From the sequence record MK509462: a stretch of 64,000 nt of DNA. One strand, given 5' to 3'. The DNA comes from Shigella phage MK-13. The position numbers were made by a program, and so were the translations under genes. Under the pieces are notes generated by a model. That model had not been told where the DNA came from. It made no database searches and was given only the letters and a program-made list of their open reading frames with translations. This document shows positions 1,685 through 32,131 of this stretch, in pieces (position 1 is the first letter of the stretch; each line of letters begins with the position of its first letter).

Positions 1685-1711
1685 ATCAAAGTATTGCTGT
1701 GTGCAGCCAGT

Positions 1712-1909
1712 TTATTTCTTCACACACCCCAAATAGGAGCAGAGTAAACCGACAGCAGAAAATATAATGGCAAGTAGGTAACGAGTCACCTGCATTTGTG
1801 ATGTTGTAAGCAGGCTGACAACGCTTTCGAGCGCCAGGAACAAACAAACTCCAGCGACTACACCGAACTTGAACGAATTACGTTCTCTGTTAATTCTGAA
1901 CTTGTACAT
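1712..1909 (-). CDS. small hydrophobic membrane protein (65 aa)
   Basis: ORF with two hydrophobic segments; same strand as neighbours. Confidence 0.4.
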   Translation of the reverse strand: MYKFRINRERNSFKFGVVAGVCLFLALESVVSLLTTSQMQVTRYLLAIIFSAVGLLCSYLGCVKK

Positions 1910-26594: not shown

Positions 26595-27113
26595 TTAGAT
26601 GGTGCTCATGTAGAGAGGAACCACCTGCTCTGCGATCAGAACGATCTCATTAATGGTGAAGTCGCCACCATAAGAATACAGCTTCATCTGCGCCCCGTTG
26701 GTTGCGAGGTTCCCTGCCTTGTCAACACTGAAGAACGTGATAAAGGAGAGAACGTCTGGGGGCGGTACGCTGGAATCTCGACTCTTAGACAATTGGTTGC
26801 CTGTAGAGCCAACAAAGTCCAGCAACATCGTCCTGTTGGATGTCGAACCAGACCATGTTCCGATGATGTTCACCTTGACAGGCAAGATAGAATCGACCGG
26901 AAATGCATGGAACTTATGGTCGGACAATTTGAAGAAAGGGGCTAACCCAGTCACAGACGAAGGATGCGGTGTTTTACCGTCCAACAACGTTAAGAGATCA
27001 ACACCAGTCGCTCCAGCAGGCAAAGCCGCTGTGAGGCCAGAGAACCTCACTTCAACTTTGATGCGGTGCGTCTGGAGCATATTGCCCAGGTAAGGAGAAG
27101 GTAGAATGGCCAT
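26595..27113 (-). CDS. hypothetical protein (172 aa)
   Basis: Minus-strand ORF. Confidence 0.55.
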   Translation of the reverse strand: MAILPSPYLGNMLQTHRIKVEVRFSGLTAALPAGATGVDLLTLLDGKTPHPSSVTGLAPFFKLSDHKFHAFPVDSILPVKVNIIGTWSGSTSNRTMLLDFVGSTGNQLSKSRDSSVPPPDVLSFITFFSVDKAGNLATNGAQMKLYSYGGDFTINEIVLIAEQVVPLYMSTI

Positions 27114-27121
27114 GGCTCCTC

Positions 27122-27376
27122 CTAGGAAACGATAACAGAGGAAGCAGAAGACGCGCTCTTAACCCACCCAACAGTCGGCGGGGTGAGCACAACGATATTA
27201 CCTTGATAGAGAGTATGAGCCGGAGAGGAAGCACTCGGCGTGGTTGGACTATCACACAAATACACAGAACCTTGAGTCACTTGTATTGTTTTCAATGATG
27301 TGCCATCTGAGACTTGCGTCCATGTACTTGCATCCAGAGTAAACTTGGCTGTTGCCATGATACACCTCCTGTACAA
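27122..27376 (-). CDS. hypothetical protein (about 78-84 aa)
   Basis: Minus-strand ORF. Confidence 0.4.
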   Translation of the reverse strand: MYRRCIMATAKFTLDASTWTQVSDGTSLKTIQVTQGSVYLCDSPTTPSASSPAHTLYQGNIVVLTPPTVGWVKSASSASSVIVS

Positions 27377-27786
27377 GTTCAGATCTATTTATACCGGACA
27401 AAAGAAAGCCGGATATCCTTATCCGGCTATACCACATCGATGGGATGGGTGGAAAGACTACACACTTTGCACTGGTACTGCCCTATGGGAGAGCGCGTCA
27501 GGAGTCGAACCTGAAGTCGTCGGCGTAGAGAAAGCTATTTGCATTTCACTATCCTCGCCGCGATTTTCTTAACTTCCTAAACACCCGATTACGAGAGAGT
27601 CGGCATGCACACCTTCTAACTCTTCAGGAAGTCACGCCCACAATTTGGTGCCCGTTAGAGGGGTTGAACCTCAGCACTCTGGTGATCAACCCAGAGAGTC
27701 GCGCCTCATCCGTTTGTTAGTCAGATTTGGGTCTTGCAAAACCTTAACCGACCGTCTACAAACAGACTGCTTGACCGAGCGTAATT

Positions 27787-27870
27787 TGGAGCGGGAGAGC
27801 AGGATTCGAACCTGTCCAGTGATCGTCGCCGATGATCAGTCGGCTACTGTCCAACCCCTATGGCTCCCGC
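27787..27870 (-). tRNA. tRNA-like gene, near-canonical (tentative anticodon GAT)
   Basis: Perfect 7-bp acceptor GCGGGAG/CTCCCGC plus T and CCA, T-loop TTCGAAT, 5-bp anticodon stem GCCGA/TCGGC; one extra nucleotide at the T-stem/acceptor junction and a D-stem mismatch. Confidence 0.45.
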
Positions 27871-28093
27871 GAAATAAGGACGGGCTTCACACCCGATTGA
27901 GCATTTGATCTGCCGTAGCCCAACTCCCCGCGCTTCTCAGCGCCGATTGGTTAACTGGCGACCAGTGCCTTCTGGTTCGATCTCCTGGAACTTTACAGGC
28001 TTTGCGCCCGACCATTTCTGGAAGTTGGGGCATCGTTTCCGATGTGGAGTCACCCCATTTTATACACAGCGTGGCTGCAACGCTTACTGTGTT

Positions 28094-28177
28094 TGGTGTG
28101 AGTGGATGGATTCGAACCACCGCGCTGTTACGGGGAGATTTACAGTCTCCTGCATTCGACCGCTCTGCCACACTCAC
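28094..28177 (-). tRNA. tRNA-Tyr (anticodon GTA), type II with long variable arm
   Basis: Acceptor GTGAGTG/CACTCAC + A + CCA; anticodon stem GGAGA/TCTCC with loop CTGTAAA; T-arm GGTGG-TTCGAAT-CCATC; 84 nt. Confidence 0.75.
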
Positions 28178-28434
28178 ATTTGGTCTACCGCTGCGTGCTG
28201 GGCCACGCTCGAGGACATCGGCCATCCTTCCTCAGCTAATCCACGCAGCGGCAGATTTGTTTCAGAGTGTCCGGTGTAGCAACCCGTGAGGTGCGCACTA
28301 CTGTAGCCTCTACACTCTGAATTTGGTGGGCGTTACTATCGTCGTCTTCGGATTCCGTTCGGCTATTGGACAGAGGCTTGGAGCTTGTCGGTCGCGTACT
28401 TCGTGCCTATTCACTTTCGTTCACACCCATTGTC

Positions 28435-28510
28435 TGGCGACGATGACAGGACTTGAACCTGTGACATATGGATTAACAGTCCACCGTTCTACCGACTGAA
28501 CTACATCGTC
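28435..28510 (-). tRNA. tRNA-Asn (anticodon GTT)
   Basis: Full cloverleaf: acceptor GACGATG/CATCGTC, D-arm GTTC-AGTCGGTA-GAAC, anticodon stem GTGGA/TCCAT with loop CTGTTAA, T-arm ACAGG-TTCAAGT-CCTGT, discriminator G, CCA; 76 nt. Confidence 0.9.
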
Positions 28511-28511
28511 T

Positions 28512-28736
28512 TTATCCGTGCTTGTTCGCTTCAATCGCCCTTAATTGGGCATCAGCGTCAGCTTTGGTGTCATGTGTACCAAGAACCTTCGTCTTGGTGT
28601 GGTCAAGGACAACCCACTTGTCACCTCGCTTTTCAACAAACTCGACAATCTCTTTGTTGTCGGTAGCGAGGCCATCCCACTCAGCAATAAAATCACCGAA
28701 CGTTTTCATCATACTCACCAATTGTTTATTGAACAA
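28512..28736 (-). CDS. hypothetical protein (74 aa)
   Basis: Clean minus-strand ORF ending 2 nt before tRNA-Asn. Confidence 0.5.
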   Translation of the reverse strand: MFNKQLVSMMKTFGDFIAEWDGLATDNKEIVEFVEKRGDKWVVLDHTKTKVLGTHDTKADADAQLRAIEANKHG

Positions 28737-28938
28737 CTGGTTTATTTAGGTGCTCCCAAGGCGGTATTTGAATCCCGCGATCCCATCACACCTGCCGTAG
28801 ACCGGAGCTTGCTGGCAGTCCAACAATGTTTGGCGGGGTTTGAGGATTTTCACCTCACCTGCTGGGTTTGGCCGCCCAGCCGTTCTCTATGAGGATTCGC
28901 TGTCCGGACAACTATCCCTTAAACTATCGCCCCTCAAT

Positions 28939-29018
28939 TTGGTTGGAGGAGAAGGATTCGAACCTTCAACGGCTGCCGCCATCCCCTCAGGGAATGTCTA
29001 CCCCTTCCATCATCCTCC
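28939..29018 (-). tRNA. tRNA gene, isotype unresolved (tentative anticodon TGA)
   Basis: Perfect acceptor TGGAGGA/TCCTCCA + A + CCA and T-arm GAAGG-TTCGAAT-CCTTC; D-arm and anticodon-arm register could not be resolved by hand. Confidence 0.55.
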
Positions 29019-30538
29019 AAATTATTGTGTGACCAACCAAGGACTGTCAACCCTTTATCCCGTTTGTGCATGATCAGTTCATGCAGGCCTGTTTGTGCGC
29101 CTCACAGCATGCGCTTCTGTTGGTCATTGGCTTGCACCGTAGCCTCGCAACAGGCGTTTATTTTTCCAGGGCTTTCCACTTGCAAGTCTTAACCATACAG
29201 GGATACGGGCTTGCAAGATCGGGTTGGTCACAACTCTGATGGCTCTCGCCTTTCCGCTCATTTACCTGTCATCCACAACCGATATACATTATGGAATCTT
29301 GAGAGCCATCAGAGTTGCAGCCATGCTACAACCCGCACCTGGGAGAGGACAAGGTGATCGACCCCAGATACTTGCCTGCTTTCGCCAGGCCAAACGGTTT
29401 AGCGTCGGGTGCCTCCCGATGCCATTATCATGGCGAATAATGGCGTTGACTTATCCTCAGGTGGTTCTTGCCACTCAACCCTTGCGCTTAGCAGGATTCA
29501 CTAAACAACCCGCACTTCAGTGTCTTCGTCACACTTCAGCACTTGTCCTCTAACGTTCAGACCAAACGAGGCTGGCCGATAGCAAACTTGTTCTCTGGTA
29601 TTTTGTGACCCGCCAGAACGGTATGGGTTGATAGCCCGAACTCAGTTTGTATCGTAGAGTGATCACACTTGTCAGGATGATCACTATTTTGCGAACTCGA
29701 GAATACTGCACCTGTCTCGGGTTTCCCCTTAGTACGGTCACTCATTGTTCGAAGCAGTCAGGGAGCTACCCTTGATGACCGCGCTTATCTTGAGCTGTTC
29801 CTGGTGCCCACCAGTGTCCGGAATGTATAGGCATCGCAGCTTTACAAGGCAATGGTCTATTTCACCCATCGCTCTCCCAAGTTCGCAAAGTAGAGTTCTC
29901 TGAACTTCAATGACCCCTCATCTTGTACTATCGCCGCCGGGAACGTTCACCATGTGAATCAACCCTTGGGTTAAGTTCAACGTCCAGAGGACTCTACTTT
30001 GCGTTGTGGGGGCTGACCCCCACACGGCTACTTCTTTAACAGGGATTGCCAGCCCTGGGGATTCCACTGTTTAAGGCTTCATCCCATAACGCCTTAGGCG
30101 TGTTCTCAAATTATTGAGCTTGCTTAACTGCAAACTGATGCGCTGTGAGACACATCTTTGAGGGCACTCAGTGTGCAACAGGCTCCGATATTTCATAGGG
30201 CATTACTGCCTCGGATTTGAGTTGCCTTTCTCCTGAAACTCCATGCAGTCTCGCGTCTGACGCGGAATGCCCTCAAAGATGTGGAGCCGCTTTAGGGAGT
30301 CGAACCCAAGTGATTGGCCAGCGCTGACCTCACACCCCACCTGATATGTTCACCGGAACTTGCCTACTCAGGAGCTTATCCCCTTTTGACAATCAGGTAT
30401 AGCGGCATTGTAAATCTGTTTGGGCGGAGGCCTGTAACCAGCAGGCATCTCCTAGCGAACTTCTGAACACCAGGCTCGGGTGCGCCTGTCGCTGTGGTGA
30501 GTTCGACTTAACTCCTGAGCGGTTATTCCCAGTCGTCG

Positions 30539-30628
30539 ACACCCCCCAAACAGATTTTAGTCGGCGGGAGCTTATTAATCACACCCCCCAAACAGATTTT
30601 AGTCGGCGGGAGCTTATTAATCACACCC
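30539..30628. repeat. 42-bp tandem direct repeat, 2 copies plus a partial third
   Basis: acaccccccaaacagattttagtcggcgggagcttattaatc at 30539-30580 and 30581-30622, then acaccc; GGCGGGAG/CTCCCGCC inverted repeat at 30605-30612/30628-30635. Confidence 0.85.
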
Positions 30629-31357
30629 TCCCGCCTATTGTAGTGCGCCGAATTTTGTTATGAGGAGTCGGAAGACCTCACTGACTTATAGGCTATTACG
30701 CCGCCATCAGAACTACATCATCGTTTGCATTTATTTTTGTGGTCTGTTTCTTAAAACCCGCAAAGTCACGCACAACGAAAACGAAAACCTGTTTGAGCAC
30801 AAGACGCCATGTCCTGGGTTCACATCGAAGTGTTTGTCTAATGCCCAAACAGCTTTTCGTTCAATGGGTTAACTATACTCTGCAACCCGTTATTGACAAA
30901 ACTTTAAATCTGCCGGAACTTACGCATCCGGCCTCGCCTGTTGGTGCTCCTTCGAATCCGGGAAGATCAGCAGGAACTATGAATCAAGTTAATTCAACCA
31001 ACAGGAACCTTTGTGTTGCCCTTTGACGCAACATTATGAACCCTCTGTGAAGATCCATAATGTTGTCGGCGTGATGGAACCTGGCAGATCCGTCCTCCCC
31101 TATATGTTGGTGTCGACTTGCCAACGGGGTGCTCTCAAGCATCTGAGCTAATCACGCTACAACAGGGAGTTTCGTTCTCCGACGGTCAGTGCGTCCACTA
31201 ACACCATGCAAGGTGGATGTCACGCCTCTATTCACGCATGCCCCTGAGACTGGGATTAGTGAGGTCGGCTTTAGATGCCTAACTCAATGCGCTGTTCGCC
31301 TCACGTTTAATACTTTACCACAGCCCAGCTAATTTGAAAAGTCCTCTCCTCTTTGAG

Positions 31358-31504
31358 TTACACTGCCCACAGCAGTGCGGACGAACCTTCACTCAAAACC
31401 GGATGCACCGAAGTGGGCGACTGTTTACCGGACTGATCGGGTAGACCCAGGAGAGTAAAGGTAATCCCGATCAGGAGGATGAGGAGTAACATCATGTAAA
31501 ACAT
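31358..31504 (-). CDS. small hydrophobic protein (48 aa; not in the ORF track)
   Basis: Minus-strand ATG preceded by a strong SD GAAGGGAGGGAA; translation MFYMMLLLILLIGITFTLLGLPDQSGKQ... Confidence 0.4.
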   Translation of the reverse strand: MFYMMLLLILLIGITFTLLGLPDQSGKQSPTSVHPVLSEGSSALLWAV

Positions 31505-31561
31505 AGTGTTCCCTCCCTTCCATGCAACTAACTTTACTGCAATTCTTTATTGAATAAAGCG

Positions 31562-32131
31562 TTATTTTACCACTTTTAACTTCACATCACGCTCGAGCAG
31601 ATACACATATTCACGGGCGGCTGCGAGCGACATATAATGGGTGGATGGGGTGCTGTGTTTGTTCAGCGTCTCTTTTAATTCAACTCGCTCAGCCCACCCA
31701 TTGATGGAGGTGCCGTAGAAGCCGATGATAGCAGCGAAATAAATGCGTTGAGTTTCCGGCTCCAGGATGTAGTTCACGGTGAAGCAAACTTCAGAGCGAA
31801 TGCCAGAAGGTTTGATACCAATACGAAAATATGGCATCTCATTGCTAACACACAAATGGCGAAAACGATCACGACGGGCTTGTGTTGACTCCGTAAGTTC
31901 TTTACGCAGATGTATATCGTCGATGTTAAAAGAGAATGTGTTGTTGCTCTTTAGATCTGATTTAGCCAGGTCGATAGCAGAAGGAAGGACACGGCGGAAA
32001 TTGACTTCTTTCTTTGTCAAGCGTTTTGTCTCAGAAGTGATCCACACGAAATCGATATCTTGTACTTTCTTTCCTTCATATTTTTCCAACAAGGGAATGA
32101 TGTGTTTTAATACGGCAGTGTTGATGTGCAT
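31562..32131 (-). CDS. hypothetical protein (189 aa)
   Basis: Minus-strand ORF; palindrome CTTTATTGAATAAAG immediately downstream. Confidence 0.6.
   Translation of the reverse strand: MHINTAVLKHIIPLLEKYEGKKVQDIDFVWITSETKRLTKKEVNFRRVLPSAIDLAKSDLKSNNTFSFNIDDIHLRKELTESTQARRDRFRHLCVSNEMPYFRIGIKPSGIRSEVCFTVNYILEPETQRIYFAAIIGFYGTSINGWAERVELKETLNKHSTPSTHYMSLAAAREYVYLLERDVKLKVVK

Follow-up and report, generated by a model that had tools for sequence, protein, structure and literature searches.

A likely island of stable RNAs, with a putatively tmRNA-derived tag module, precedes the tRNA genes of Shigella phage MK-13

A likely stable-RNA island beside the tRNA genes

A stretch of 64,000 nucleotides (nt) from Shigella phage MK-13 (sequence record MK509462), here called the window, contains at positions 29040–30540 an interval that an earlier reading of the bare sequence (the original prediction) had flagged as a candidate structured RNA, pointing to a long-range inverted repeat and to GC-rich stem-loops without coding potential. 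Our comparative analysis indicates that this interval likely forms the core of a polycistronic island of stable RNAs, encoded on the minus strand of an Ag3-like phage of the Ackermannviridae. The source phage is an Ag3-like Agtrevirus, the window being 94.5% identical to Shigella phage Ag3 (Agtrevirus), ~84% identical to Kuttervirus and ~74% identical to Klebsiella Taipeivirus. The island, ~1.9 kb long and free of open reading frames (ORFs), extends on the minus strand from a promoter-like site (30899–30872) to a tRNA-Ser gene, with the flagged interval as its middle part, and is followed on the same strand by four tRNA genes called by ARAGORN (27787–29019). Read 5′ to 3′ on the minus strand, the order is promoter-like site, long hairpin I1, tag module, a 42-nt duplication, modules J, T and I2, two small hairpins, module I3, module E, an STnc100-like element, modules I5 and A, and tRNA-Ser, and a long stem closes each block. 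Judged from sequence comparison, the island appears to be conserved but fast-evolving and to include, downstream of the tag module, the structured RNAs A and E, a tRNA-like RNA, and a relative of STnc100; all functions proposed below for these RNAs are putative.

The 15-nt inverted repeat that drew attention to the interval is exact, cacatctttgagggc (30151–30165) being the reverse complement of gccctcaaagatgtg (30269–30283) with 103 nt enclosed, and a repeat finder extends this pair, I2, to 24-nt arms at 88% with 85 nt between the extended arms. A repeat of this length is beyond chance: among 300 shuffles of 29040–30540, only one had a perfect inverted repeat as long as 15 nt within a 300-nt span, whereas the real interval contains one of 17 nt and one of 15 nt. 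The segment 30140–30295 (156 nt) folds at −61.1 kcal/mol versus −43.2 ± 3.9 kcal/mol for dinucleotide shuffles (z −4.56), none of 200 shuffles being as good, and the five long-stem modules tested gave fold z-scores from −3.6 to −7.0. The small hairpins reported earlier are also there, namely, CGCGTC-t-GACGCG at 30252–30264, CAGGG-attgccag-CCCTG at 30040–30057, and GTGGGGG-ctga-CCCCCAC, which lies at 30006–30023, one base from where it had been placed. The two at 30006–30057 on the minus strand are ~90% conserved in Ag3 and SFP10; their stability against shuffles is unexceptional (z −1.31), and such GC-rich hairpins are the weakest part of the evidence for a folded RNA.

Between the tRNA genes and ~31350, the longest ORF is at most 109 amino acids (aa), ten ORFs of 49 to 109 aa had no match in Pfam or PHROGs, and lineage-specific indels interrupt the ORFs of the island, all of which bears out that the interval is non-coding. 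The equivalent gap, from the tRNA cluster to the Vi01_177-like and gp6 genes, is present in all five Ackermannviridae records examined and holds few or merely small hypothetical coding-sequence annotations. The original prediction had conceded that its stems might prove to be terminators of small flanking genes; attenuators would be a related reading, and the stems are in fact GC-rich and in some records (e.g., that of Klebsiella phage Menlow) lie near small annotated ORFs. We regard this as extremely improbable, given that no T-tract follows any of the stems in the sequences, that a scan of 29040–30900 found no terminator-like site on the minus strand, that the small ORFs of Menlow are unconserved, and that those of the window lack a family match. 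An Rfam scan returned neither a canonical transfer-messenger RNA (tmRNA) nor the group I intron that had been offered as one option (no Intron_gpI match in 27000–31800 even at E ≤ 10), and gave sub-threshold matches to tmRNA_permuted and STnc100.

Compensatory changes, for which a comparison with related phages had been proposed, were found in modules A, E and T. In module A, aligned over 14 sequences from Agtrevirus, Kuttervirus, Taipeivirus, Limestonevirus and Miltonvirus (Dickeya, Serratia and Klebsiella phages included), 13 of 56 pairs changed on both sides; in module E, this applied to 15 of 54 pairs across 11 sequences, and in module T to 4 of 41 pairs, including an acceptor pair that alternates between C-G and U-A. 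The covariation supports A and E strongly and T more weakly, and A and E appear to represent at least two well-supported new structured RNA families. Among the modelled pairs, G-U and A-C cells numbered 39 and 5 in A, 52 and 1 in E, 98 and 1 in T, and 25 and 0 in I2, a total of 214 versus 7 over the four modules, and the opposite strand folds far less well for E (−37 versus −63 kcal/mol) and for T. Because G-U is tolerated and A-C is not, the element appears to be a folded RNA of the minus strand, the same as the adjacent tRNAs, which argues against plus-strand RNA and DNA cruciforms. A role of the inverted repeats at the DNA level, as replication origin, recombination or homing-endonuclease target, or packaging signal, is accordingly very improbable in our judgment; the number of long inverted repeats and the insertion of homing endonuclease genes in the homologous region of some relatives would suit it, whereas the G-U excess is expected of one-strand RNA and the pseudoknot and multi-helix junctions covary. 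Taken with the fold z-scores, the covariation and the G-U excess bear out the earlier proposal of a folded RNA rather than a protein-coding region.

Modular organization and the conserved stem at I2

The helices had been described as nested parts of one folded RNA; the folding stands, but in place of a single RNA we find tandem modules that are gained and lost independently between relatives. When the window was compared with Ag3, SFP10, Menlow, Dickeya phage RC-2014 and Serratia phage Kevin, blocks were present or absent independently of one another, with sharp borders at the bases of the stems. The module built on the original inverted repeat, I2 (30151–30283, minus strand), consists of the closing stem and a 103-nt three-way-junction interior, and its 5′ arm starts inside the CCA end of module T. 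In other lineages, a stem is retained at this position although its interior is replaced or nearly lost: Ag3 has an unrelated 57-nt interior between arms ACAUCUGAGAGGGCAC and GUGUCCUCCCAGAUGU, an IMG/VR locus (L024) has a 10-nt interior, and FelixO1-type phages have a 9- or 32-nt interior between AUCUUUAAGGGCU and AGUCUUUAAAGAU. HC8A-type siphoviruses and lambdoid prophages carry another long stem there (CACAACAGGUAAGAGCAUUG and CAGUGCUCUUUCCGUUGUGG), its cargo again variable, and of 47 distinct contexts of the tag module, at least 23 have a long stem 3′ of it. The conserved element at I2 is therefore the helix and not the cargo. Among seven homologues of I2 itself, the closing stem is invariant, every one-sided change yields a minus-strand G-U, and a single interior pair switches from G-C to C-G.

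A side observation concerns the interiors. The closing stems of FelixO1 (locus L126, ~1430–1460) and of an Escherichia coli lambdoid prophage (locus L160, ~2420–2450) share an interior of ~26 nt, CCCUUAUGGGGCUUGGCUUAAAUGCA, so the interiors of stem-closed modules may be exchangeable units shared between unrelated phages.

This modular behavior bears on the possibility that the ~1.9 kb form one large ornate noncoding RNA, like GOLLD or ROOL, working as a single particle. Such an RNA would fit the placement of all modules on the same strand, the lack of a terminator-like site inside the island, and overlapping stems such as the 3′ part of the closing stem of E with an arm of I3 (29884–29898), which could reflect higher-order or alternative folding. 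We nevertheless think it unlikely, since close relatives differ by independent swaps, deletions or insertions of modules, unrelated phages carry the tag module alone, the tRNA-like unit with its encoded CCA suggests cleavage, and no GOLLD, ROOL or other large-RNA match was obtained from Rfam.

A tag module resembling the message half of tmRNA

Directly upstream of the flagged interval on the same strand lies the tag module (30602–30790), made up of a leader, a tag frame, a pseudoknot and a hairpin. A tmRNA-like RNA had been another option of the original prediction; it fails within 29040–30540, where ARAGORN makes no call and Rfam stays below threshold, but the idea survives in this upstream module, and the tRNA-like module T abuts the I2 stem. 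The SsrA-like tag frame (30696–30728, minus strand) reads GCA AAC GAU GAU GUA GUU CUG AUG GCG GCG UAA (ANDDVVLMAA*), is preceded by AAAAAUAAAU, and has neither a start codon nor a Shine-Dalgarno sequence; the in-frame sequence upstream is unconserved. The stretch of AAAAAUAAAU plus tag frame accounts for the match to Rfam tmRNA_permuted (RF04321, 30.5 bits versus a threshold of 47), while other tmRNA models were further below theirs (RF01849, 20.3 versus 50; RF00023, 10.5 versus 47). The 17 distinct tag ORFs encode 11 peptides, all with 10 codons and a stop. All ten third codon positions vary versus five first and five second positions; codons 1–3 (A-N-D) and 10 (A, using all four Ala codons) show synonymous change only, and the two alternative frames are closed in 16 of the 17. 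The tag frame appears to be under purifying selection and looks translated.

The frame is accompanied by a stop-codon helix like helix 5 of tmRNA and then an H-type pseudoknot (30648–30710, minus strand); helices 1–4 of the model are 82–100% paired, with 9 of 15 pairs changed on both sides (e.g., CCGA/UCGG to CCAA/UUGG to CCAG/CUGG). A hairpin with a conserved 15-nt loop, GGUGUGAUUAAUAAG, lies at 30605–30635 on the minus strand; the loop is invariant across phage families, and in the stem of the hairpin (helix 5), 7 of 8 pairs changed on both sides. Over 28 diverse sequences, the structure as a whole is 94.4% paired and 16 of 23 pairs are compensatory; none of 500 shuffles did as well, and slid controls reached 35–50%.

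A 311-nt query spanning the tag module matched 763 phage records, which included Ackermannviridae, Felixounavirus, 40–48-kb siphoviruses and P1-like phages; outside Ackermannviridae, only the tag core matches. The module is also present in 673 of 5,426 complete E. coli genomes, where it sits either between Q and the holin gene of lambdoid prophages or between dam and tRNA-Asn on P1-like plasmids. Many hits of a 15-mer scan of IMG/VR, which at first looked unspecific, also turned out to be genuine tag modules. In the five loci whose annotation was inspected, the module adjoins tRNA genes or falls within phage late regions; most of the listed records leave it without annotation, and in unrelated phages it occurs alone, without other island modules. 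No Rfam family covers it in any relative, and our literature search found no paper on a tmRNA-like element in these phages, the word "tmRNA" entering Ackermannviridae papers only through citation of ARAGORN. The tag module thus appears to be a widespread, undescribed, tmRNA-derived RNA.

Its likeness to tmRNA (RF00023, RF04321) includes a resume-type GCN codon that replaces a start codon and follows an A-rich context having U at −5 and A at −4, a 10-codon tag of the form ANDxxxxxxA ending in hydrophobic residues or Ala, a stop codon in the loop of a helix, and a pseudoknot thereafter; a message region of the tmRNA kind, with resume codon, short tag and stop, is thus found at 30696–30728, outside the flagged interval. 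In contrast to tmRNA, the module has no joined tRNA-like domain, its 5′ end lies only ~45–60 nt upstream of the resume codon, it stays below Rfam thresholds and unseen by ARAGORN, and its leader is antisense to the host tmRNA, a feature not known from any tmRNA. In FelixO1-type and HC8A-type phages, a consensus promoter box, TTGACA-17-TATAGT/TAGATT, stands only ~45–60 nt upstream of the resume codon, at the same distance 5′ of the tag module as the MK-13 site. No tRNA-like domain is consistently joined to the module in the Ag3, FelixO1-type and HC8A-type contexts, and ARAGORN found no tmRNA in the window or its relatives. Phage tmRNAs are known in full form from Bxz1-group mycobacteriophages and Bacillus phage G and, as a "TLD-only" fragment, from mycobacteriophage DS6A (PMC4131195; PMC11915505), and the DS6A fragment has been proposed to interfere with host trans-translation (PMC4131195). 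The tag module shares with these the status of a phage-borne tmRNA derivative; it differs in its Enterobacterales hosts and, compared with DS6A, which keeps the tRNA-like half, in keeping the message-like half together with an antisense leader.

A tRNA-like unit does occur in the island, namely, module T (30282–30406, minus strand; 125 nt), a cloverleaf-like four-way junction with an encoded CCA at 30284–30282. It has an acceptor stem (GCCGCU/AGCGGC), an arm of ~60 nt at the D position, a tetraloop arm at the anticodon position, and a T-arm (GGG-UUCGACU-CCC) followed by U-CCA. The cloverleaf with acceptor stem, the UUCGA-type T-loop and the 3′ CCA are those of a tRNA, but a 7-nt anticodon loop and a normal D-arm are missing, and neither ARAGORN nor Rfam RF00005 detects it; nor is it the tRNA-like domain of a tmRNA, which has G3-U70, as T has C3-G70 and is self-contained. 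We read it as a putative tRNA-like processing or mimicry element and not a decoding tRNA. We also considered, and rejected, a permuted two-piece tmRNA in which the T-arm and CCA (30284–30310; CGGCUCCA(CCA)) would join GGAGCC in the I2 loop (~30187–30192) to give a tRNA-like domain working with the tag frame. Its attractions are that CGGCUCC-A resembles the 3′ end of tmRNA and GGAGCCUGUU its 5′ end GGGGCUGAUU, that both blocks are conserved in SFP10 and Menlow, and that the gene order (3′ strand, spacer, 5′ strand) is that of permuted tmRNA genes (PMC11915505). Position 3:70 would however be A-U instead of the G-U required by alanyl-tRNA synthetase, the pairing would form a sterically implausible pseudoknot with the 15-bp stem and leave no linker, and the alternative register GCCGCU/AGCGGC-U-CCA gives normal tRNA geometry and a compensatory change. 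Both blocks are moreover missing in Ag3, whose tag module is identical, and in FelixO1-type and HC8A-type phages, and ARAGORN calls no tmRNA, so we find this construction hardly credible.

As an observation in its own right, FelixO1 (locus L126, 1326–1404, minus strand) has an unannotated tRNA-like gene directly 3′ of its tag module, with an acceptor stem CGGGGCG/CGCCUCG containing G3-U70, then A73 and CCA, which is the alanine identity set, and with an anticodon-like loop CUUCUAA. ARAGORN missed it, and its Rfam tRNA score (31.7 bits) is just over threshold; other Felix-type phages have a canonical tRNA-Arg(UCU) at that spot.

A leader complementary to host tmRNA

The leader of the tag module (30748–30790, minus strand) occupies the ~45 nt that precede the resume context. 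It begins with the conserved AUAGUUUUCGU and is the reverse complement of nt ~64–109 of host ssrA, a target that runs from the 3′ half of pseudoknot 1 through the A-rich linker and the resume codon into the tag, of which it takes in the first six to seven codons. When reverse-complemented leaders were aligned locally with E. coli ssrA, they scored 19–36 versus 15 ± 2 for shuffles; for six of nine variants, none of 300 shuffles scored as high, and the window copy is weaker, as 4 of 300 shuffles reached its score of 22. Duplexes of the leader with host ssrA are predicted at −25 to −41 kcal/mol, versus −13 to −25 kcal/mol with its own tag region (−35.3 versus −19.8 kcal/mol in the window). The tag RNA thus probably pairs with host tmRNA. 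If so, the leader should follow changes in its host and read, for instance, UAUUGUUCGU against a host ACGAACAAUA. Across Enterobacterales the targeted block hardly varies, which leaves a test of leader-host co-variation without power and fits the invariance of the UAGUUUUCGU block across unrelated phage families. The ssrA of Dickeya undicola (locus L257) differs from that of other Enterobacterales exactly in the leader-pairing block, with GACGAAACUUAC instead of GACGAAAACUAC, and Dickeya phage RC-2014 (locus L004, 3190–3700) keeps the island promoter and the first I1 arm without a tag module; this is a single, weak correlation.

A tentative reading, against which we would put the odds, is that the phage RNA serves as a trans-acting "message half" that reprograms the host tmRNA tag. 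The tag frame looks translated and the tRNA-like domain of the host is the only one always available, hence the idea of a replacement message. The leader would anneal to nt ~64–109 of host tmRNA, unfold pseudoknot 1 and mask the host resume codon, and the phage resume context and tag frame would be presented beside the host tRNA-like domain. Ribosomes rescued by host tmRNA-SmpB would then add the phage tag instead of ANDENYALAA, and since the phage tags (ANDDVVLMAA, ANDNTFLAVA and others) have C-termini altered from the host ALAA, the fate of tagged proteins in infection could change. A simple helix can reportedly take the place of pseudoknot 1 with function retained, so that this geometry is conceivable. 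The plainer alternative is antisense inhibition of trans-translation. That the tag module is a neutral relic appears weakened, because the leader block has stayed invariant while the module's own tag diverged.

A broader version of the relic idea, in which recombination scars and the remains of tRNA and tmRNA genes make up the island and its stems are functionless leftovers, seems to us improbable. tRNA-like fragments are common in the region (T-arm-like hairpins, a tRNA-Ile-like sequence at 31101–31180, inserts in Ag3 and SFP10), the module content turns over fast, and HC8A appears by eye to hold a relic of a longer antisense ssrA copy 5′ of the promoter. Yet the helices persist through compensatory changes, the module A copies of Agtrevirus and of the Dickeya Limestonevirus RC-2014 share 93% identity, the tag frame appears to be held by purifying selection at 10 codons and a stop in every case, and the 15-nt loop and the UAGUUUUCGU block do not vary across unrelated phage families.

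The HC8A sequence just mentioned (locus L127, ~1700–1760, minus strand) lies upstream of the promoter and carries, in antisense, ACGUUAGCAGCUAA, a sequence similar to host ssrA ...ACGCUUUAGCAGCUUAA. The tag module may have originated as an inverted duplication of a longer ssrA segment that is now interrupted by the promoter.

Proposed expression, processing and significance

What the sequences show is folded structure, its strand, modularity, missing coding capacity, a coding signature in the tag frame and complementarity of the leader to ssrA; from these, we infer co-transcription, processing and function of the island as follows. Transcription would start at the Sigma70-like promoter TTGTCA-16-TATAGT (30872–30899, minus strand), a consensus match that is the likely start of the island transcript, and run through the tag module, J, T, I2, I3, E, the STnc100-like element, I5 and A, reaching tRNA-Ser and probably the remaining tRNA genes. 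The I2 repeat would be the closing helix of its module, and such helices would insulate modules for separate folding within a long precursor and, together with the tRNA-like ends, serve as signals for processing and stabilization. The putative processing shapes are stems of 15 to 26 nt per arm that are 85–100% complementary and the acceptor/T minihelix with its CCA. RNase P could cut 5′ of G30406, the encoded CCA at 30284–30282 providing the other end, and RNase III or RNase E could act at the long stems to release discrete small stable RNAs. The function is most likely the manipulation of host translation and RNA quality control in infection, the tag module being the clearest case because its leader is antisense to host tmRNA; the remaining modules, tRNA-like and stem-closed, would be further RNA tools directed at host translation.

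Several points weigh against this account. The island is known from sequence alone, its promoter is only a consensus match, and promoter-like sites are about as frequent as in shuffled sequence (4 versus 3.3 ± 2.0), while the RNase P, RNase III and RNase E steps are ones we infer from shape alone. The alignments consist of closely related sequences, so that the compensatory counts include inherited changes; I3, I5 and J occur in too few lineages for covariation testing; the closing stem of I2, invariant in its homologues, draws its support from cross-lineage replacement and not from compensatory changes; and module T alone folds no better than shuffles (z −1.54). In MK-13, finally, hairpin I1 sequesters the seed of the antisense leader.

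The phages concerned (Vi1/Ag3, FelixO1, Webervirus-like, P1-like and lambdoid phages) are heavily studied and used in therapy and biocontrol, and the locus is unannotated or filled with spurious small ORFs in their records; conserved, covarying RNAs of this sort would constitute a gene class missed by protein-centred annotation. If the tag RNA pairs with tmRNA, phages could block or rewrite host ribosome-rescue tagging, possibly a new RNA-based form of host takeover that could be relevant to the dependence of several phages on host trans-translation, or to their sensitivity to it. Modules A and E qualify as candidate structured RNA families for curation.

Two groups of known RNAs invite comparison. 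The species 1 and 2 RNAs of the T4 tRNA operon are stable RNAs cut out by tRNA-processing enzymes. As is proposed here for the island RNAs, they are small structured RNAs of unknown function, partly tRNA-like, that are co-transcribed with phage tRNAs, and they are released by RNase P and 3′ processing; the MK-13 island is much larger and modular and has a tmRNA-derived unit, and we know of no sequence relationship between the two. GOLLD and ROOL are large ornate RNAs, often next to tRNA genes in phages and prophages, and both are in Rfam. They resemble the island as large, highly structured, protein-free phage RNA loci adjoining tRNA genes; the island differs in having no Rfam match as a whole, in being a string of separable modules, and in its Enterobacterales hosts.

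Further modules of the island

Module A (29028–29232, minus strand), a multi-helix RNA of ~205 nt with an 11-bp closing stem, is the most widely conserved module and is present in every Ackermannviridae lineage sampled. Its GGAAAG...ACAAACGGG sequence, which we take to resemble RNase P RNA, suggested a mini RNase P RNA; this was rejected, as module A on its own matched nothing in Rfam at E ≤ 10, RNase P models included, and its covariation-supported fold is fully nested, without a P2/P4 pseudoknot. A candidate tRNA-Ser promoter at 29050–29021 was also dropped, its −35 box being unconserved in relatives and the sequence belonging to the closing stem of A. Module E (29679–29898, minus strand) is a multi-helix RNA of ~220 nt with a 12-bp closing stem.

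Three minus-strand modules have a narrower distribution. I5 (29231–29317), a perfect 17-bp stem with a 53-nt interior (fold z −6.97), and I3 (29884–30003), with 22-nt arms (91%) and a 76-nt interior (fold z −4.67), are found only in Ag3-like phages. Module J (30412–30557), with a 16-nt closing stem (pair I7, 94% complementary) and a 114-nt interior (fold z −3.59), is found in just two other loci. The long hairpin I1 (30780–30861, minus strand) has 26-nt arms and folds at −37.5 kcal/mol (z −5.35), and its 3′ arm contains the leader block GGUUUUCGU. A perfect 42-nt tandem duplication of ACACCCCCCAAACAGATTTTAGTCGGCGGGAGCTTATTAATC (D1; 30539–30622, two copies at 100%) repeats the first arm of J together with the 3′ half of the hairpin that bears the conserved loop; Ag3, SFP10 and Menlow have just one unit each, and the duplication is therefore probably recent.

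Between E and I5 lies a diverged element (29397–29506, minus strand) like the small RNA (sRNA) STnc100 (Rfam RF02076, 33.4 bits versus a gathering threshold of 47, E 8.6e-6), which aligns to the central part of the model, positions 30–148 of 206, with both model ends missing. The syntenic element of Menlow scores 53.2 bits over positions 1–206, above threshold. Members of the STnc100 family are sRNAs carried by prophages (e.g., downstream of stx2) and related to PasD; their function is unsettled in the literature (bioRxiv 10.64898/2026.05.13.724894; PMC12370729). The window element is likewise phage-borne and near tRNA or late-gene regions; it differs in being sub-threshold and in residing in a virulent myovirus, whereas STnc100 is in a lambdoid prophage.

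Neighboring genes and minor observations

The first of the four tRNA genes after the island is tRNA-Ser(UGA) (28940–29019, minus strand), called by ARAGORN and annotated in the same way in Ag3. Both it and tRNA-Ile(GAU) (27787–27870, 84 nt), another ARAGORN call, are below the Rfam tRNA threshold and are seen in Rfam only as weak tRNA-Sec-type matches (24.5 bits for Ser and 20.9 bits for Ile); they are therefore structurally unusual tRNAs.

The GenBank record of Menlow (locus L003, 1776–3649) places six small plus-strand "hypothetical protein" genes with ribosome-binding sites across the region. These annotations are probably spurious because they overlap covarying minus-strand RNA modules and the full-length STnc100 match.

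When island segments were compared, sense and antisense, with host 16S, 23S, 5S, rnpB, 6S, 4.5S and ssrA RNAs, only 31101–31180 rose above the shuffle null, with a score of 30 against a null maximum of 28. This segment, on the minus strand upstream of the island promoter, resembles the 5′ half of tRNA-Ile (UAGCUCAG...GAGAGCACCCC) and lies within 30908–31350, which is likewise ORF-poor and is 72–94% conserved in relatives. Ag3 (locus L001, 4450–4527) and SFP10 (locus L002, ~2015–2095) carry an extra tRNA-like element of ~76 nt that is missing from MK-13, GGCGAGG...GUGUGGUUCGAUUCCACACCCUCGCCA, with a tetraloop in place of the anticodon loop; it escapes ARAGORN, and its insertion point maps to 30907|30908 of the window.

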